IMG/VR virus record: IMGVR_UViG_2695420596_000003 | Span: 1-8,564 of that record | Length of the DNA stretch: 8,564 nt | Origin: a virus | Taxonomy: Duplodnaviria; Heunggongvirae; Uroviricota; Caudoviricetes | Direction: 5' to 3' (one strand) | Part shown: in pieces, positions 1 through 8,001 of the stretch | Layout: each line of letters opens with the position of its first letter | How positions within the stretch are numbered: the first letter of the stretch is position 1 | Notes under the pieces: generated by a model | Told to the model about the DNA's origin: nothing | Databases searched by the model: none | The model's input: the letters and a program-made list of their open reading frames with translations, nothing else | Program-made: the position numbers and the translations under genes

Positions 1-660
1 TTCTGTTGCGGTCGTTGCATCCCTGGCTGCATTACCGGCTGCACTTTCTGCCGTCTTTCTTGACAATTCAGCTTCTGCTGCACTTTGTGATGACTCACTG
101 GCTTTTTGAGCGGCCGCAGAGGCCGAGGACGAGGACGCCTCCTCTGACTGCTTTGCAGCGGCTGCACTTTCTGCCGCCTGCCGGGCTGACTCCGATGCAT
201 CCCCTGCTGAAGTGTCAGCATTTGCAGCGTTCTCTTCTGCCTGACTGGCTGATATGCCGGCATTCCTCGCGGACGTCTCCGCCTCTCCGGCATTCTTCTT
301 CGCCTCCTCAGCGTGACGCGCCGCTTCTTCCACCATCAGTTCAAAACGACGCAGTGCCTCCGGCCGGACGTCATCCTCCGACATGGCACCGAGAAAATCA
401 TTCAGCGTACCGGGTTGAGAATCTTCATACACGGTGATGGTCCCGGCATGTGACGGCGGGAATCCTTCCACCAACAGAATGACGCTGTACTGACCGTACT
501 CAACGTCCATGCTGTAACGACCGGCTTCATCCGGATTTTCAGAGGCCACCGTGTTCACCACCACCGTGCTGCTGGTCCGTCTGGCTTTCAGTTGAATGGT
601 ACAGTTCTCTACCGGTTTTCCTGTGCCGTCTTTCAGTACACCTGAAATCTTTACTGCCAT
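1..660 (-). CDS. stf: Side tail fibre protein Stf, N-terminal 220 codons (5' partial; gene continues beyond window start)
   Basis: Minus-strand frame is open from ATG at 660-658 to position 1 with no stop (absent from the ORF track because it lacks a stop). Translation begins MAVKISGVLKDGTGKPVENCTIQLKARRTSSTVVVNTVASENPDEAGRYSMDVEYGQYSV..., near-identical to the lambda Stf N-terminus as remembered, then enters an Ala/Ser/Glu-rich low-complexity region. Possible SD GGGGTG upstream. Confidence 0.85.
   Translation of the reverse strand, partial: MAVKISGVLKDGTGKPVENCTIQLKARRTSSTVVVNTVASENPDEAGRYSMDVEYGQYSVILLVEGFPPSHAGTITVYEDSQPGTLNDFLGAMSEDDVRPEALRRFELMVEEAARHAEEAKKNAGEAETSARNAGISASQAEENAANADTSAGDASESARQAAESAAAAKQSEEASSSSASAAAQKASESSQSAAEAELSRKTAESAAGNAARDATTATE
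37..176. repeat. 18-bp perfect direct repeat (cggctgcactttctgccg at 37-54 and 159-176) within the stf low-complexity region
   Basis: Identical 18-mer seen twice, 122 bp apart; encodes a recurring AESAA peptide on the minus strand. Confidence 0.6.
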
Positions 661-670
661 ATTCACCCCA

Positions 671-698
671 CAAAAAAGCCCGCCTGAAACGGCGGGCT
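671..698 (-). terminator. Putative rho-independent terminator downstream of lom
   Basis: Perfect 8-bp stem agcccgcc (677-684) / ggcgggct (691-698) with a 6-nt loop; on the minus strand it is followed by TTTTTTG (complement of 671-677). Confidence 0.55.
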
Positions 699-724
699 GT
701 CATAACACGGTGTTACCTGGCTAA

Positions 725-1324
725 TCAGAACTTATAACCGACACCCACGATGAAACCGTCAGTGCGCCAGTCGCCACTGCCGGAGCCTTCATAAGCAATA
801 TCAATGGCCACGGATTCGGTCGGGTTAAACTGCACGCCAGCCCCCCACGCCAGAGACGTGTTGCTGTGGCGACCGTCATCACTTCCGGTCAGCACATCGT
901 GCGTTTTCCCCTTGTTGTCAGTTACGCGGAGATAATCCCCGGAGAAAGTCGACACACGGCTGTAAGCCACTCCCGCCATCGCATACGCGCTGAACCATTC
1001 ATTCACGCGCACAGACGGCCCCGCCATTACGCTGAACCAGCGGTTACGCACGGAATCTTCATGCCAGCGGGTATCGCTGTAACGGGTAATCTGGCGATTC
1101 CTGTCTCCTGCATAGCTGAATGACGTCACCAGCCCCAGCGTGTCCGTGAATTCATAACGGTATTTCACGTTAATCCCGTTAAGATTATCGCTACCGGGAG
1201 CGTTCGTCCGGGCATGAAGATACCCCGCGCTCAGCGTGGCCTGCTGCTCAGACGCCCATGCAGGCGCACCGGATACGGTCAGACAAATGGCTGCGGACAA
1301 AATGGCGGCATAAAGTTTACGCAT
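725..1324 (-). CDS. lom: Lom, outer-membrane beta-barrel protein of the Ail/Lom/PagC/OmpX family
   Basis: 199-aa ORF with an N-terminal signal peptide ([24 protein letters not shown]) and C-terminus ...[29 protein letters not shown], matching lambda Lom as remembered. SD GAGAGG 7 nt upstream. Position after J matches lambda gene order. Confidence 0.9.
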
Positions 1325-1345
1325 AATTACCTCTCGCTTTTCTGC

Positions 1346-1372
1346 AATAAAAAAGGCGTCATTTCTGACGCC
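1346..1372 (-). terminator. Putative rho-independent terminator between J and lom
   Basis: 7-bp stem ggcgtca (1355-1361) / tgacgcc (1366-1372) with a 4-nt loop; on the minus strand it is followed by TTTTTTATT (complement of 1346-1354). Confidence 0.5.
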
Positions 1373-1390
1373 CGTTCTGGGTTATAAAAT

Positions 1391-3778
1391 TCAGCTGATA
1401 CTGATACCTGCTGTGGATTTTTTCATCACCACAACCAGCAGATCGCTGATACTTGCTGTGGGATACCAGTTATTTACCAGCCATGCTGACACCGAAAACT
1501 CCAGCGTCATGTGACCGTGACCGGCAGGCATATCAATAACGCCACTGTAAATCAGCGTATTATCCAGCGCGGTACGGTTATAAATTTCAGCACCGTTTTT
1601 CCGCACTATCAGACGGCATGAGGAGTAAATATCAGTATGCTCTCTCTCATGTTTAGCGCCGCTGAATGCCACCGCCGGAATAACAATTTGCCGGTCAAAC
1701 GGCTGATCGTCATAAACCCTGACGGTAATGGTCCCTGATGGCCACCGCTCCGGTGCACGGGAATCCCGGGGGAAAGCTTTGCCCACTGTTTTAACGAGAT
1801 CGCCTTCAATCTGGTTCGCGGACAGTTTTCCCAGAACCCGACAGTTCTCGTTAATCGTGACGTTGTTGAGCGTCCCGGAATTCGCATTCACGTTACCGCT
1901 GATATCAGCATTTCTTGCGGTCAGCCTGCCCTCCGGCGTCAGGGAAAACGTCGGGGGATTGCCGGACGAGGTGATACTCACCGCAAACAGCCGCTTCAGG
2001 AACACATCGTTCATGAACAACTGATTCCCCTGCGCCACAAATAACGGCGTGGTGTTGCCGTCCTCCGGGTTAATCATCGCAATACGGTCAGCCAGCAGCA
2101 GTATGTTGCTCAGGGGCTGGCCATCAGTATCCTCAATCCCCGCTCCAATACCGGCAACATAGGGTATGCCATTTTTTGTTTTCTGTACCTTCAGCATGTA
2201 AAGTGCAGCAAGGTCATCATTTGTGTCCTTCTGCACGCGCTGTATCTGCTGTATGGTGGCGCTCTGGTCTTCCAGCGTTTTACTGACCGTCTGTGTGATT
2301 TCATTGCGGGTTTCGGTGATGGTGGTCTTCATCTCCGCCATCTCATCCGCAAGCTGGCTGTTGTCTATCAGCTCCCACAGCCCCTGAGCCAGATGCAGTT
2401 TTCCTATTTTTTCCCGAAACAGTCCCAGATACCCTTCTGCATCATTGCTGGCCCGGCCACTGGCTTCCACAAAAGCAGATTTCCCCACCAGGTTGACGCT
2501 GCGCACGTAAAACCAGAAATCCTTCCCGGGCTTAATGTGCGGGCCGGATACACTCCACTGACTGCCGGTCCCCAGATAACGGGCAGAGGTTTCCACCTGA
2601 GATATGTCTGCGATTTTTGCCTCCGAAAACCAGAACTCAAACTGTACCGTCGGGTCATACACCGCAAGACGCGGGACCGCTGTTATCTGAAAATAGCCCG
2701 GTGTCAGCTCAATCGTGGCGGGTACCGCAGGTGCATTAATCCTGAACGTGGTGGTGGCCGGTTCGCCCTGCTGGCCATAACTGTTAATTGCCCTGACTGT
2801 CAGGGTGTATTCCCCGAGCGGCAGGCCGCTGAAACGGTGCTCCGTGTCTGCGGTGATGGCGGTGGTCACCAGTCTGGCATCCGTTCCCTTACCACTGGTC
2901 AGGCGCAGACTGAAGCGCACGCCCTTCACCACCCGCGGCGTGTCCCATTTAGCCTGCGCCAGATACTGGCCGTCAGCTGCACTCACCTCCACCGTCAGGT
3001 GCTGTACTGCCGGTGGGATGACGCTGTTCAGGGAACCTGACTGCGGCTCAAAGCGGGCACCGTTATCCACGATGGCTTCTTTTTCCGGTACGTGCTGCAC
3101 CGCCGTGATGGCAAAGGTGCCGTCCGTGTTTTCCCGGACGGAGACACAGCGGAACAGGCGACGGCGCAGTGACGGCAGGGACCAGAGCGTCTTATTCTGC
3201 AGCTGGTCCGAGGTGCTGTCCGCTGTCTCCCGGACCATCCGGATGTTAAAGGGCCGCTCAGGCAGATTATCCAGAATCACCGACGCCAGAAACTGCGAGG
3301 TGGTCTTGCCGTTAATGGTGACATCCTTTTCCGTCACCCAGTTACCGTTACGCTGTAACTGAATCAGCAGGCGGACGGATGTCGGGTTTCGGTCACCCTT
3401 TGACGTGGTCTGCACCAGTGACTGCACCCCGAAGGTGACCCGCAGGCGGTCAATGTTCGCGGATGTAATGGTGCGCGTCACCGGCTTTGCCTTCGTCACT
3501 TCCACGCCCAGTGCGGTTTCCGCCCCGGAGGACTCAAAGCCTTCAGGTGGTGTCTGCTCCTGCTCCCCGGCGCGCCAGACCGCGGTCACACCATGTATCA
3601 CAGGATTACCGTCCGTGTCCGTCAGCGGGGTTTTGTTCACCAGGATACTCTGCAGCCCCTTCACCGGACCTTCAATCGGCCCTTCACCAATGGCGTCAAT
3701 CACGCTCATCATCTGCGTGGATTTGAGATTGTCCTTCGCCTCACGAGGTGTGTGCGCCCTGCCGCCACCTTTACCCAT
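1391..3778 (-). CDS. J: Tail tip / host-specificity protein J (central tail fibre), shortened 795-aa form
   Basis: N-terminus [22 protein letters not shown]... and downstream blocks ([34 protein letters not shown]; [27 protein letters not shown]; [18 protein letters not shown]; [20 protein letters not shown]) match lambda gpJ as remembered. SD GAGAGG upstream of ATG at 3778. Length is about 340 aa short of lambda gpJ (1132 aa from memory). Confidence 0.9.
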
Positions 3779-3911
3779 AATGTTCCTCTCAATTGGTATT
3801 ATTAATCGCAGTGATAGGATATTGCACAGCTATTGCGCGATATCATCAGAACGCTGTTTGTTACCCTGTAACCAGCAAGCTCAGTCTGTTAACGGAATTA
3901 ATGAGGGTTTT

Positions 3912-4439
3912 ATGAAATGTAAAATCATTGCTGCCATTGCCATGCTGACAGCAGCATCATGCGGATACGCAGCAGAACAGGAAGTCCCAATGAACCTTGT
4001 CAGTGCTGACGGAAAAGAAGTCAGCATTGGAAAAATAACCATTCAGGAGACCCCCTACGGTCTGCTGTTCACACCAGCCCTTCACTCTCTGTCTGAAGGC
4101 ATTCATGGTTTTCATGTGCACGAAAAAGGAAATTGCGCCCCGGCACTGAAAGACGGAAAACCGGTCGCAGCATTATCGGCTGGCGGTCACTTTGACCCGA
4201 AAAACACCGGCAAACATCTTGGCCCCTGGTCTCCGGATGGACACCTGGGCGACCTCCCTGCGCTGTTCGTGACGCATGACGGAAAAGCGAACTACCCGGT
4301 CCTGGCCCCGAGACTGAACTCATTAAAAGAGATTAAAGGGCGTTCTCTCATGCTTCATGCTGGCGGTGATAACCATCATGACCATCCGGAGCCCCTGGGC
4401 GGTGGTGGTGCGAGAATGGCCTGCGGCATCATTCAATAA
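3912..4439 (+). CDS. sodC: Periplasmic Cu/Zn superoxide dismutase (prophage-borne SodC)
   Basis: 175-aa product with a signal peptide ([20 protein letters not shown]) and Cu/Zn-SOD motifs [31 protein letters not shown] and C-terminal [19 protein letters not shown] 5 nt upstream of ATG at 3912. The longer ORF-track entry 3405..4439 is an antisense-to-J extension of the same frame. Confidence 0.92.
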
Positions 4440-4445
4440 TCAGTC

Positions 4446-4474
4446 AGGTAAGGGGCGGGCCCCTTACCTTTATT
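4446..4474 (+). terminator. Putative rho-independent terminator of sodC
   Basis: 10-bp GC-rich stem aggtaagggg (4446-4455) / ccccttacct (4460-4469) with loop cggg, followed by TTTATT. Confidence 0.6.
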
Positions 4475-4586
4475 CCTCAGGACGATAAATCCTTTCTCCC
4501 TGAAAAGAACGGCACATCCTCCCTCTCTGAGTTAATGTTTTTGTCGTGACATAAGAATAATTCCTTACACTCAATCTTCGTAACTC

Positions 4587-4630
4587 TCCCGCAGTTCCTG
4601 TCCGTGAGCACTGCGGGATTTTTTCGCTTT
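4587..4630 (+). terminator. Second plus-strand rho-independent terminator abutting the 3' end of gene I
   Basis: 9-bp stem tcccgcagt (4587-4595) / actgcggga (4610-4618) with a 14-nt loop, followed by TTTTTTCGCTTTT (4619-4631). Confidence 0.5.
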
Positions 4631-5310
4631 TATGCCTGCCGCCCGATAACCACCACCTTCCCGTCACCGCCTTCATCACGGGTACTGATGTCCTGGGATA
4701 TACGGCGGGAGCCAACCAGCATTTCACCGTAAGGCACCGGCATCGGGTTCCCCTGGGCAATCATGTTATCCAGCGAGGAAAAGTACGTGTTCTGTCTGCC
4801 GTTATCCGTGCTTTTGTACTCCGGTACTTTAGCCTTCGGGGCCAGCATCTGAGCCACACCACCCAGAATCATGCTGGCCCCCAGAGAAAACAGCATCGTG
4901 GTGGCAGAAAAACCACCGGCTGCCAGGGCTGAACCCCATAACGCCATTGATGCCCCGGCCGTGAAGAACGACCCCACGATGGCTGCCGCCCCCAGCACAA
5001 TCTGCAGTCCGCCCTTTCCGGCTCCGGCCAGTCGCGGCACAATATGGATGACCGCCCCCTCACCCAGAGGTTCGTGAAGACGGGCGTACACCGCCTCCGG
5101 TGCCGTGTCCTCACCGCGAATACGTATCTGGTACCAGCCTTCGTTCATCTGACGGCGGAATCCCGGCATCTGCATCGACAGGGCACGGATGGCTTCCGCT
5201 GCCGTGTTCACATACAGGCTGAGGCGGCGGCCAAATCGTTGTAAATCCCCGTGAAGGCAGATACGTGCCAGTGGCGGTGACGCCAGGCTGAATGCGTTCG
5301 TCGTTGCCAT
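4630..5310 (-). CDS. I: Tail tip assembly protein I
   Basis: 226 aa: MATTNAFSLASPPLARICLHGDLQRFGRR ... QIVLGAAAIVGSFFTAG ... GASMILGGVAQMLAPKA ... NTYFSSLDNMIAQGN, matching lambda gpI as remembered. Overlaps K by 103 nt, the same arrangement I recall for lambda K/I. Confidence 0.9.
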   Translation of the reverse strand: MATTNAFSLASPPLARICLHGDLQRFGRRLSLYVNTAAEAIRALSMQMPGFRRQMNEGWYQIRIRGEDTAPEAVYARLHEPLGEGAVIHIVPRLAGAGKGGLQIVLGAAAIVGSFFTAGASMALWGSALAAGGFSATTMLFSLGASMILGGVAQMLAPKAKVPEYKSTDNGRQNTYFSSLDNMIAQGNPMPVPYGEMLVGSRRISQDISTRDEGGDGKVVVIGRQA

Positions 5311-5951
5311 TTTTCGGAATACCTCTCCCGTTTACTCAGTTGTTCAGGCAGATGGTGAAGCAGCTCACCGTTGCCGCAGTATATGGCGGCATGATTGGCC
5401 ACCGATGCGCCAAAGCAGCACAGCAGGATATCGCCAGGCTGTGCGGAAGGCAGGGAAATCCTGTAAAAACCAGTCGCCTCCATATTGTCCAGGTACAGGT
5501 TCTGACCGTTGCGCCACCAGTCATCCTCACGCTCAAAATCCGGCATATCAATTCCCGCCAGATGGTAGGCATCCCGGAACAGCGTGTAACAGTCCGTCAC
5601 CCCGTGCTCAAAGCGCCGTCCTGTCAGATGTGGCACACAGCGGAATTTATGAATTTCCCCCCGGCAGACCAGCCACCAGGACAGTGCACTTTTTATCTGC
5701 AGCCGCCGGTCGGCCTCGCTCAGCCAGGGCAGACCACCGGGATGACTGTGGACCAGTGCCACAATCTCCCCCTGCATCTCTGCCCGCAGCCAGTCTTCCG
5801 GTGCAATACGAAAATACGCCTCCGGCTCTGCAGAGATATTCACACAAGGGATATACCGCTCCCCCTCCGGCGTTCTCACCACGAAGCCGCACGACTCCGC
5901 AGGCACACACCGCCGGGCATGCGCCAGAATCGCTGATTCTGTCTGTGTCAT
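5208..5951 (-). CDS. K: Tail tip assembly protein K (JAMM/MPN metalloprotease-like plus NlpC/P60-like domains)
   Basis: 247 aa starting MTQTESAILAHARRCVPAESCGFVV, matching lambda gpK as remembered. JAMM motif HSHPGGLPWLSEAD is present; Cys in GVTDCYTL and His in ANHAAIY fit an NlpC/P60 Cys-His pair. Confidence 0.9.
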   Translation of the reverse strand: MTQTESAILAHARRCVPAESCGFVVRTPEGERYIPCVNISAEPEAYFRIAPEDWLRAEMQGEIVALVHSHPGGLPWLSEADRRLQIKSALSWWLVCRGEIHKFRCVPHLTGRRFEHGVTDCYTLFRDAYHLAGIDMPDFEREDDWWRNGQNLYLDNMEATGFYRISLPSAQPGDILLCCFGASVANHAAIYCGNGELLHHLPEQLSKRERYSEKWQRRTHSAWRHRHWHVSAFTGIYNDLAAASACM

Positions 5952-5956
5952 TGGAT

Positions 5957-6655
5957 TTACTGCGAAAGTTTGTTAATGGAAAGGAAACCGCCAAAATTAG
6001 CCACCATGCCGCGCATCTCACACCCGCGCATGCACTTGCTGCATCTGTCCTTACGGATATCGGTGGTGGGTTTATCGAACTCATCCGCCACCGCAGGACC
6101 GTTATACCCGCATTCATCTCCCCGGTAATCCCACATACAGGTGTTCGCCAGCATGATGCGACCGGGAAACAGCGCTCCGTCCGTCTCCGTCGGTGTTGCC
6201 AGCACAAACGAGGCTGTCATGGCCGTCAGCTCTGACATCTGCTCCACCACCCAGCGGTCGCTCAGCTCCTGCTCCGGGTCCGCTTCCGGATTGCCCGCCA
6301 CAAAATTCACCGCATCCAGAAAACGCGCATACACCCGGCGGCGGACCACCGTGGCACCCACCAGGCTCTGCAAATCCTCCGCCATCCCGGTGACAAGACC
6401 GAACAGATTGGACACCGTCAGCGACGGGCGGGCACTGCAGCCCTTTCCGTTCATCTCAAAGCCACTGCCGTCAATCGGGTATGCCTGATATTGCCGCCCC
6501 TGCCAGGTAACCGCCTCCCCTTTTTCATTCAGCTCATTGCAGAAAAAATACCGCTCACCACCCTGTACCGTCAGGTCGATTTCCCAGAGTACCACCCGCG
6601 GTGACTGCTCTGATTTAACCGACTCGTTCAGACTTTCTTCGTGAATATCCTGCAT
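5957..6655 (-). CDS. L: Minor tail protein L (tail tip, Fe-S cluster protein)
   Basis: 232 aa: MQDIHEESLNESVKSEQSPRVVLWEIDLTVQGGERYFFCNE..., with a C-terminal cysteine cluster (CMWDYRGDECGY ... DRCSKCMRGCEM) as in lambda gpL. Start overlaps the M stop (ATGA). Confidence 0.92.
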   Translation of the reverse strand: MQDIHEESLNESVKSEQSPRVVLWEIDLTVQGGERYFFCNELNEKGEAVTWQGRQYQAYPIDGSGFEMNGKGCSARPSLTVSNLFGLVTGMAEDLQSLVGATVVRRRVYARFLDAVNFVAGNPEADPEQELSDRWVVEQMSELTAMTASFVLATPTETDGALFPGRIMLANTCMWDYRGDECGYNGPAVADEFDKPTTDIRKDRCSKCMRGCEMRGMVANFGGFLSINKLSQ

Positions 6656-6984
6656 CAGTTCACCACCTGCTTAAACTCCGCGCTGAATTCAACCCGCAGC
6701 ATGCGAACCCGTGATGACCAGGCGGCACAGGTCACCTTTATCTGCCGCCAGGCATAAGGCGGTGTCCACAGAAACGCCTTCCAGCCACCGTGCTCTGCCA
6801 GGAATGCCTCCAGATGTCGGGCCTCCTCCCGGGTCACGGAAAGCGTCACACGGTATGTTTTCAGGTCAGCATTCAGCCCCGCCGCCATACGCTGCGAATA
6901 CCCGTCACCAAAACGCACTTCACGCACCGATGGCTGCGAGTTCACCTCCATATCCGGCTTCACTTTCCAGCGAAATGTTTTCAT
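6655..6984 (-). CDS. M: Minor tail protein M
   Basis: 109 aa: MKTFRWKVKPDMEVNSQPSVREVRFGDGYSQRMAAGLNADLKTYRVTLSV..., matching lambda gpM in sequence and length as remembered. Start overlaps the H-remnant stop by 4 nt. Confidence 0.9.
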   Translation of the reverse strand: MKTFRWKVKPDMEVNSQPSVREVRFGDGYSQRMAAGLNADLKTYRVTLSVTREEARHLEAFLAEHGGWKAFLWTPPYAWRQIKVTCAAWSSRVRMLRVEFSAEFKQVVN

Positions 6985-7229
6985 CGCCTGCCTCCGGAAA
7001 AGACGCCGCCATCACGCATCTGCGCCTGAATCTCATCCTGCGCCCCCTTGCGGGCCATGTCATACACCGCCTTCATCAGCTGCGGCCCCGCCTGTCCGTT
7101 GGTGCCGTCGTTCTGAATCACCACGTGATTGTTCTGATTAAAACTAATGCCTTCCGCCCGCCGCATCTGCGCCGGACTTCCGGCACCGCCCACATAACCA
7201 CCTTCCGCATAATGCAGTTGTGACAGCGC
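6981..7229 (-). pseudogene. H: 3'-terminal remnant (~82 codons) of tail tape-measure gene H
   Basis: Frame ends ...NNHVVIQNDGTNGQAGPQLMKAVYDMARKGAQDEIQAQMRDGGVFSGGRR* and overlaps the M start as lambda H does, resembling the tape-measure C-terminus. The frame is closed by an in-frame stop at 7230-7232 only ~83 codons upstream; the 'M' in the ORF track is a GTG. A full tape-measure protein is ~850 aa. Confidence 0.8.
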
Positions 7230-7236
7230 TCATCAT

Positions 7237-7266
7237 ATTATTCAGTTGTTGCTCTGATATATTCAT
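7237..7266 (-). pseudogene. A: 5' stub (~10 codons) of terminase large subunit gene
   Basis: ATG at 7266-7264 overlaps the Nu1 3' end, as the lambda A start overlaps Nu1. It encodes MNISEQQLNN (lambda gpA starts MNISNSQVN from memory), then runs out of frame into H-derived sequence and terminates after ~40 codons. Confidence 0.5.
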
Positions 7267-7744
7267 CAAGTAAATCCGGTAATTTATCCCCTGCCCGCGC
7301 ACACTGATTTGCCCCCTTAGCAATAAGGGTTTTCAGATGGTCAAGATGGCGCGGTGTTAAATCAGGAAACTGTCGCTGCATGGATAAAGGGATGGAATCA
7401 AGCGTACTGGATAACGCCATTGCCAGCTTACTGAGGGCAAAAATACAGAATCCGGTGTCAATAAGCTTACCTTCGGTTACCTGATTTTTAAGTTTTTGAG
7501 CTACGGCCTGTTCTTCTGTCAGTTCAGCTCTGGCCCGAAGCAGCCTTTCCTCCAGATCGCCCTCGTCATCAGGTATTCTCTGATTGTGTTGTCGCCGCTC
7601 GCGATCTATCTCCAGTACAGTTTTAACGTCATAAAAAACTTCCCTCCCCCGACGCTCAACAGGAGGAACGCCCCATTTATCAAATGCCTGAACAGATATA
7701 CCGATGGAGGAGGCCATATCACTTTTATTCAATAAAAAGGCCAT
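7238..7744 (-). CDS. nu1: Terminase small subunit, Nu1-like (NohA/NohD-like)
   Basis: C-terminal half ...TGFCIFALSKLAMALSSTLDSIPLSMQRQFPDLTPRHLDHLKTLIAKG...LPDLLDEYIRATTE aligns with lambda Nu1 (TAFCTFVLSRIAGEIASILDGLPLSVQRRFPELENRHVDFLKRDII...LLSEYIEQSG) as remembered. Start chosen at ATG 7744 (MAFLLNKSD..., preceded by GGAGAGGAG) by alignment with the lambda N-terminus; the ORF-track start at 7849 and the ATG at 7762 are alternatives. Lies ~190 bp from cosN as in lambda. Confidence 0.8.
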   Translation of the reverse strand: MAFLLNKSDMASSIGISVQAFDKWGVPPVERRGREVFYDVKTVLEIDRERRQHNQRIPDDEGDLEERLLRARAELTEEQAVAQKLKNQVTEGKLIDTGFCIFALSKLAMALSSTLDSIPLSMQRQFPDLTPRHLDHLKTLIAKGANQCARAGDKLPDLLDEYIRATTE

Positions 7745-7938: not shown

Positions 7939-8001
7939 CATAAATAGCGAAAACCCGCGAGGTCGCCGCCCCGTAACCTGTCGGATCGCCGGAAAGGACC
8001 C
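7939..8001 (-). other. cos: Cohesive-end site cos (cosN 12-nt overhang at 7960-7971, flanking cosQ/cosB-proximal sequence)
   Basis: Reverse complement of 7939-7971 reads GGGCGGCGACCTCGCGGGTTTTCGCTATTTATGA, identical to the first 33 nt of the lambda left end as remembered. 7972-8001 (reverse complement GGGTCCTTTCCGGCGATCCGACAGGTTACG) matches the lambda right end. Confidence 0.85.

Follow-up and report, generated by a model that had tools for sequence, protein, structure and literature searches.

An in-frame internal deletion in the gpJ-type tail-tip gene of a defective sodC-carrying lambdoid prophage of Escherichia coli

Introduction

Is a 795-residue homologue of the lambda tail-tip protein gpJ a naturally short member of its family, or a full-length protein that has lost an internal part, and, if the latter, how did the loss come about and what does it leave behind? 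This question is raised by an 8,564-bp stretch of DNA, here called the window, which is the entire contig CXZG01000055.1, in reverse orientation, of an E. coli draft assembly (GCA_001283165.1). The original prediction, made from the sequence by eye, was that the J gene in the window (J' in the following) carries an internal in-frame deletion and that this deletion, together with a scar between the terminase and H genes, reflects stepwise decay of a prophage. Below, we define both junctions, map the lost residues onto the known lambda structures, and weigh several explanations for the origin and persistence of J'.

The prophage and its chromosomal site

On the minus strand, the window contains cosN, the small terminase gene Nu1, 19 codons of the large terminase gene, the last 76 codons of the tape-measure gene H, and the tail genes M, L, K and I. 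After I there is sodC on the plus strand, followed by J', lom and the 5' part of stf, again on the minus strand. J' therefore occupies the place expected for the gpJ/TipJ family, downstream of M-L-K-I and upstream of lom and stf. The features are as follows.

1..660, minus strand: stf (side tail fibre gene), 5' part, cut by the contig end
725..1324, minus strand: lom (Ail/Lom outer-membrane protein), intact
1391..3778, minus strand: J' open reading frame (WP_053904290.1; 795 aa), homologous to lambda gpJ, with part of the interior deleted in frame
1391..3179, minus strand: block of J downstream of the deletion junction
2825..3164, minus strand: mosaic patch in J
3180..3181, minus strand: deletion junction in J, with a 2-bp microhomology assignable to either side
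3182..3778, minus strand: retained 5' part of J, codons 1-199, with 0 mismatches against TUM3755
3912..4439, plus strand: sodC (Cu,Zn superoxide dismutase), cargo gene that separates I from J and runs on the opposite strand
4630..6984, minus strand: intact tail-tip gene block M, L, K, I
4630..5211, minus strand: I, intact
5208..5951, minus strand: K, intact
5957..6655, minus strand: L, intact
6655..6984, minus strand: M, intact
6981..7209, minus strand: remnant of the tape-measure gene H, last 76 codons (residues 784-859)
7210..7211, minus strand: second scar, junction of a 12,313-bp deletion with a 2-bp microhomology (TA)
7210..7266, minus strand: terminase large subunit, first 19 codons, fused out of frame to the H remnant
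7238..7717, minus strand: terminase small subunit (Nu1 family), intact
7960..7971, minus strand: cosN, the exact lambda 12-mer GGGCGGCGACCT with lambda-like flanks

The packaging site cosN and an intact small terminase gene thus survive without a large terminase subunit or head genes. The location of sodC between I and J is not peculiar to the window, as it is found likewise in the intact relatives TUM3755, JB2 and OkiPb01688.

Two deletions and two short conversion patches, one patch in J and one in L, set the window apart from the prophage in the complete genome TUM3755, to which it is otherwise nearly identical. Its chromosomal context is provided by a 73.6-kb contig from another assembly (L003; GCA_016693495.1), which matches the window without a difference (100% identity) across 4,704 bp that take in the J junction, and in which the gene order is J'-lom-stf-tfa-nleG-dinI-int-dusA-pspG, followed by dnaB. 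At its nleG/dinI end (L003 8424-10647), the prophage borders on a tyrosine integrase that adjoins the 5' end of dusA, which places the element in the dusA-integrating group. TUM3755 is arranged alike, and the chromosomal flank of L003 is 99.6% identical to that genome over 9.6 kb. The window is the remnant of a lambda-like, sodC-carrying prophage integrated at dusA. It is defective in the usual sense: essential morphogenesis and packaging genes are missing relative to the intact relative, and the element sits in the chromosome with its cargo genes sodC and lom intact.

A single 1,086-bp deletion in J

Alignment (MAFFT) of J' with lambda gpJ (1132 aa, NC_001416) and with TUM3755 J (WP_062898222.1, 1157 aa) gives one 362-residue gap, from after residue 199 to residue 562 in the numbering of either reference, the two being collinear in this part. 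Because one serine is ambiguous, the lost residues can be written as 200-561 or as 201-562. At the DNA level, BLASTN aligns window 1-3181 with positions 3001-6181 of an intact prophage (L001) and window 3180-7211 with positions 7266-11297, and 1,086 bp are missing from J as a single deletion with its junction at window 3180/3181, inside the interval (3176-3181) that had been named from inspection. The same 1,086-bp gap is obtained against the intact J of JB2 (1158 aa), which carries both flanking alleles and matches the window on either side of the junction, and phage records match J' in two pieces spanning 3,474 bp. Since 1,086 is 3 x 362, the reading frame of J is kept and a shortened protein of 795 residues can be read, as the original prediction had it.

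The two ends of the J deletion overlap by 2 bp (GA on the plus strand, TC in the coding sense). The junction in H likewise has a 2-bp overlap, and around both, the flanking 45 bp on each side show no further similarity. A few shared base pairs and no IS element or long repeat are what a microhomology-mediated deletion leaves behind.

The pairwise alignment that had been called for thus yields a single gap of about 1 kb, both against lambda gpJ and against the closest intact relative. The retention of some 200 N-terminal residues, followed directly by the downstream block, is borne out by the 199 codons upstream of the junction. The further claim that this block lies about 340 residues further downstream in lambda gpJ has the direction right and slightly underestimates the distance, which is 362 residues. 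The figure of about 340 residues does fit the overall difference in length between J' and lambda gpJ, which is 337 residues. The latter value is smaller than the gap because the J lineage to which J' belongs has, in the fibre, a 28-aa insertion and three 1-aa gaps relative to lambda, i.e., a net 25 extra residues.

Apart from the gap, J' is collinear with members of the gpJ/TipJ family by both MAFFT and phmmer. The identity to lambda gpJ (PDB 8IYK, 8XCG, 8XCI and 8XCJ) is 63% over 767 aligned residues, and the gene order M-L-K-I-J-lom-stf is shared, as are the FNIII-A and FNIII-1/2 domains, the fibre and, at the C-terminus, the receptor-binding domain. Besides the absence of residues 201-562, J' differs from lambda gpJ by the 28-aa insertion, which lies in the helical shaft region, and by a divergent C-terminal half, and the prophage differs from lambda by the sodC gene inserted between I and J. 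The similarity to TUM3755 J is much closer, with 99.2% amino acid identity over all 795 residues of J' and identical flanking genes and chromosomal site. In contrast to J', the J genes of TUM3755 and JB2 retain the 1,086 bp, and TUM3755 also has the full region from terminase to H.

J' does not belong to a family of short J proteins

A naturally short J family, in which J' would show no gap relative to its closest relatives, would account for the small size without any deletion. We therefore collected the 120 best relatives of J' from a collection of 5.8 billion proteins. Among these, 112 have 1156-1158 residues, and 5 more (1107-1178 aa) retain PF13550, the Pfam domain that J' lacks (see below). 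Only 3 entries among the best 120 are without PF13550, and they comprise the query gene itself (P0001), the same gene with another start (P0002) and a partial protein from a contig end (P0101). A short family is thus not seen among the closest relatives. The exact J' protein forms a singleton cluster at 90% clustering and occurs on 3 contigs (three NCBI accessions), all of them from short-read draft assemblies and including the 73.6-kb contig and one of 208 kb. A BLAST search of 5,426 complete E. coli genomes did not find the J junction, which makes the physical confirmation of the deletion an indirect one.

The missing part corresponds to the hub of the tail tip

In intact J, PF13550 (Phage-tail_3) matches residues 330-498 (E = 7e-38); it is absent from J', and all other Pfam domains of J are present. 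PF24801 (FNIII-A) matches residues 86-200 of J' and covers profile positions 3-118 of 126, with the last strand missing. Downstream of the junction there are matches to PF24421 (residues 247-350) and PF24489 (residues 352-452), and the fibre and C-terminal receptor-binding domain are represented by PF09327 (residues 509-636) and PF12421 (residues 665-795).

Over residues 1-836, intact J of this lineage is collinear with the lambda gpJ chains of known structure (8IYK and others), which allows the published domain boundaries to be applied to it. In lambda gpJ, FNIII-A comprises residues 72-215, the HDIV beta-sandwich residues 483-569 and strand beta25 residues 570-578, after which come a linker, FNIII-1, FNIII-2, the helical shaft, the beta-prism fibre and the receptor-binding domain (PMC10721106, PMC11101478). 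A review places the classical Tal domain at approximately residues 185-520 of gpJ (PMC7291167). By these limits, FNIII-A loses its last strand through the deletion, the HDII-insertion domain loses its C-terminal half, HDII and HDIII go completely, and hardly anything is left of HDIV and its beta-sandwich insert. The mapping likewise assigns to J' the first 200 residues, both FNIII domains, the fibre and the receptor-binding domain; the retained 5' part comprises the N-terminal strands of the HDII-insertion domain and FNIII-A minus its last ~15 residues. The central domain that had been suspected missing is therefore the hub, or Tal, module (PF13550; HDII-HDIII-HDIV), which is what separates J' from the gpJ/TipJ family to which it is otherwise collinear.

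We also ran the structure prediction that had been proposed for identifying the lost domains. AlphaFold2 on J' gave a mean pLDDT of 36 and a pTM of 0.24, with a shallow alignment of 22 sequences (at least 92% identity), and only FNIII-1 (approximately residues 250-350) was predicted with confidence. Given that this alignment is too shallow, the domain mapping is based on Pfam and on the published lambda structures.

In lambda, the hub domains of gpJ continue the tail tube and close it off, are stacked, with gpL, on the gpM ring, bind gpI through beta-sheet augmentation, and enclose the C-terminal coiled coil of gpH (PMC10721106, PMC11101478), and the Tal domain forms, with TMP and Dit, the complex that initiates tail assembly (PMC7291167). 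A J protein that has lost the module that builds the tube, docks gpM and gpL and holds gpI and the gpH C-terminus would be unable to build a tail tip, and judged from the lambda structures J' is almost certainly nonfunctional as a tail-tip protein.

The parent allele was a mosaic and the deletion is likely recent

The first 600 nt of the retained J have 0 mismatches to TUM3755. The block downstream of the junction has 37, of which 35 fall in window 2825-3164, with almost none afterwards; the patch begins 16 bp from the junction and lies within 356 bp downstream of it. The patch allele is also present in the intact J of JB2 and in the J of O157:H7 TW14359. On either side of the junction the window agrees with JB2 J, with 4 mismatches between the two in J nt 1-1000. 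Most simply, then, J' descends from an intact J that was already mosaic, and the deleted DNA may include the patch's upstream edge. In gene L, a similar patch (window 6326-6446) holds 9 of the 11 mismatches that the respective block has to TUM3755. The patches in L (6326-6446) and J (2825-3164) look like gene-conversion tracts from other resident lambdoid prophages.

J' has no private substitutions: every one of its bases also occurs in one or more of five intact alleles. The codon differences to TUM3755, 26 synonymous and 6 non-synonymous, belong to the patch. The lack of any private substitution suggests that the J deletion is recent.

A second deletion and a shared breakpoint in H

At window 7210/7211, terminase large is joined to H by a deletion whose length, 12,313 bp, is not divisible by 3; this deletion extends from codon 20 of the former to codon 783 of the latter and removes the head genes and most tail genes. 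The same H scar was recovered independently in the Logan assembly of ERR124658. Two separate junctions imply at least two decay events, and they show that the prophage was already defective before J was damaged or became so separately. Near-identical prophages with an H deletion and an intact J exist, namely L009 and L011 (for L011, J is intact over at least 1038 aa). Neither of the two exact junctions of the window was found on its own in any sequence, including the 5,426 complete genomes. The proposal of stepwise decay is thus supported, by two deletions with two junctions relative to intact TUM3755 and by the H-deleted relatives with intact J.

An exact-sequence look-up of the 70-aa open reading frame left from H returned six contigs, in which four different upstream partners are joined to one and the same H nucleotide (29277/29278 in L007, the TUM3755 locus). 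The sequence at this breakpoint is ...GGGTA/TGCGGAAGG... (window 7210/7211), and the partners are the following.

Window and Logan assembly of ERR124658: codon 19 of terminase large
L009: H codon ~79
L010: L007 position 22459, where the head protease gene has just ended and the head decoration gene begins
L011: 3' end of a lambda-type Nu1

The shared breakpoint, ...GGGTA/TGCGGAAGGTGG..., is located at ~9985 in L009, 9984/9985 in L010, ~139-141 in L011 and ~50-51 in L012. Microhomologies at these junctions are 0-3 bp. The prophages come from different assemblies and differ hardly at all in other respects, and to the right of the junction they are identical to TUM3755 over 4 kb. A look-up with the 70-aa frame favours endpoints near the start of that frame, a bias that does not explain a coincidence at a single nucleotide. 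In one further contig, L013 (CASDMU010000013.1, 2,167 bp), the end of H, M and the beginning of L occur a second time, with the truncated L rejoined into H (L007 29255); this is a tandem duplication or else a misassembly.

Around the H breakpoint, neither DNA folding nor repeat searches revealed anything unusual (z = -0.5), and in a comparison by eye none of Chi, cosN, the gyrase consensus and the type I-E PAM fits the site convincingly. A pattern scan of IMG/VR and metagenome contigs found no new H junction; all 190 loci that it retrieved have an intact H in which the GGC codon is a synonymous one, so that the pattern was not well suited to the purpose. When the 76-aa H remnant was used as a protein query, 48 short proteins were retrieved, none with a new clean junction at the H site; they are mostly contig-edge partials, frameshift products of a noisy assembly (P0128/L204) or an adapter chimera (P0150). 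In P0150 (107 aa, named 'tail tape measure protein H, partial' at NCBI), a J fragment is linked to the H C-terminus via 'EMCIRDR', which we take to be the translation of the Nextera transposase adapter, and the protein is probably an assembly artefact in a draft genome. None of the four H junction types has a carrier among the 5,426 complete E. coli genomes searched by BLAST.

Nested deletions in other J genes

Two further J deletions lie within the one in the window. L010, on which one of the deletions that end at the shared H breakpoint is found, has an independent J deletion of 997 bp (L010 14049-14051, corresponding to L007 33345..34341), which is out of frame, has a 3-bp microhomology and ends 37 and 52 bp inside the deletion of the window. 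L010 was considered as a direct ancestor of the window and rejected: downstream of its junction its J is of the TUM type, whereas the window has the JB2-type patch. The J of O157:H7 TW14359 (L005 2361..5216; NC_013008.1 1715831-1718686; WP_000514948.1) has 951 residues, owing to a 618-bp in-frame deletion with a 1-bp microhomology that takes out 206 aa (residues 305-510). It resembles J' in having an independent in-frame deletion in the same hub region, and differs in the smaller size of that deletion, in the J allele (86.5% identity) and in the prophage that carries it. The K gene adjoining the 951-aa J has an internal stop. In at least 64 complete genomes, the query flanks fall in one joined match with TW14359-like spacing, the deletion itself having been verified in TW14359 only; among the 25 matches listed, all span the same 768 bp. 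In total, there are three independent deletions in J, of 1,086, 997 and 618 bp, nested around one hub-coding core.

Weighing the explanations

We consider it likely, with a probability of about 85%, that J' arose from an intact mosaic gpJ-type gene through one recent illegitimate deletion at a 2-bp microhomology and that it is hub-less, fresh genetic debris. According to this reading, the event would have removed 1,086 bp, with the frame kept by chance, and would have left a 795-aa J' that is still readable and lacks the hub (Tal) module. The likely sole reason for the persistence of J' is its position between retained cargo genes, sodC and lom, with nleG further downstream. A more complex event is conceivable, given that the allele just downstream of the junction departs from TUM3755 at 35 positions within 340 bp: in the course of repair or recombination involving a second, homeologous J, the ~340-bp patch would have been laid down as a conversion tract and the other end joined by microhomology. 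The concentration of 35 of the 37 mismatches within 356 bp of the junction, next to 600 identical nucleotides upstream, is what such an event would produce, and the similar patch in L (6326-6446) indicates that exchange between prophages does occur in this lineage. However, the intact J of JB2 already joins the same upstream sequence to the patch, so that a simple deletion suffices, and since the upstream boundary of the patch may lie anywhere in the deleted 1,086 bp, its contact with the junction is uninformative. We regard a recombinational origin as quite improbable. The coincidences among breakpoints raise another possibility, namely that the tail module is repeatedly taken apart at a hotspot of site-specific breakage or recombination (for example through a nuclease, a defence system or a cut linked to packaging) and that J' is one of the outcomes. 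Four partners joined to one H nucleotide would fit such a process, and purely random decay fits less well with the nested deletions in L010 and O157:H7. The folding, repeat and motif comparisons at the H site gave nothing to match it, and we consider a hotspot unlikely as the source of J'.

That the real J is intact and that a short-read assembler collapsed several lambdoid J genes into J' is very unlikely. The worry is a legitimate one, as the window is a whole 8.5-kb draft contig ending in repeated phage genes, an E. coli genome has a median of 4 and up to 22 related loci, the J junction is in no complete genome searched, and adapter-mediated chimeras such as P0150 are known in public drafts. 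Yet the two sides of the junction share only 2 bp, which offers no k-mer path without reads that span the junction, and no adapter sequence is present there. Moreover, the identical junction occurs in different assemblies (on the 73.6-kb contig, with 100% identity over 4.7 kb, and on the 208-kb contig), and the companion H scar comes independently from the Logan assembly of ERR124658. Least credible of all, and extremely improbable in our view, is a J' that is naturally short or maintained by selection, be it as a hub-less receptor-binding protein that masks receptors or as a dominant-negative poison of the tails of competing lambdoid phages. Preservation of the frame, both here and in the independent 206-aa deletion of O157:H7, might hint at such a role, but two in-frame deletions out of three are unremarkable (the chance is 1 in 3 for each and approximately 1 in 4 for at least two), and the third nested deletion, in L010, is out of frame. 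In addition, J' is a singleton cluster with no diverged relatives, and without a private substitution there has been no time for selection to act.

Consequences for the prophage and its family

With the DNA between terminase large codon 20 and H codon 783 lost, no particle is possible in any case, whatever the state of J, and the loss of hub function from J' would probably have been neutral. This is the ordinary decay of a defective sodC/lom/nleG lambdoid prophage, of a kind well documented in EHEC and EPEC (PMC2669165). The defective lambdoid prophages of those strains, such as the Sp pool of O157:H7 Sakai, carry the same virulence cargo of sodC, lom and nleG and have deletions, frameshifts and IS insertions in morphogenesis genes with the cargo kept (PMC2669165). 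The present case does not differ from them in kind, and is a further instance with precisely defined junctions.

Taken alone, J' has little significance, and the coincidence of breakpoints among independent deletions is the sole point that may be worth more. For annotation, a 795-aa 'host specificity protein J' or 'DUF1983 domain-containing protein' (NCBI) of this type is a hub-less derivative and is not to be taken as a functional tail-tip protein. For the biology of these elements, the locus is a clean example of how a prophage with virulence cargo loses its particle-forming genes piecemeal and the cargo, here sodC, lom and nleG, stays.
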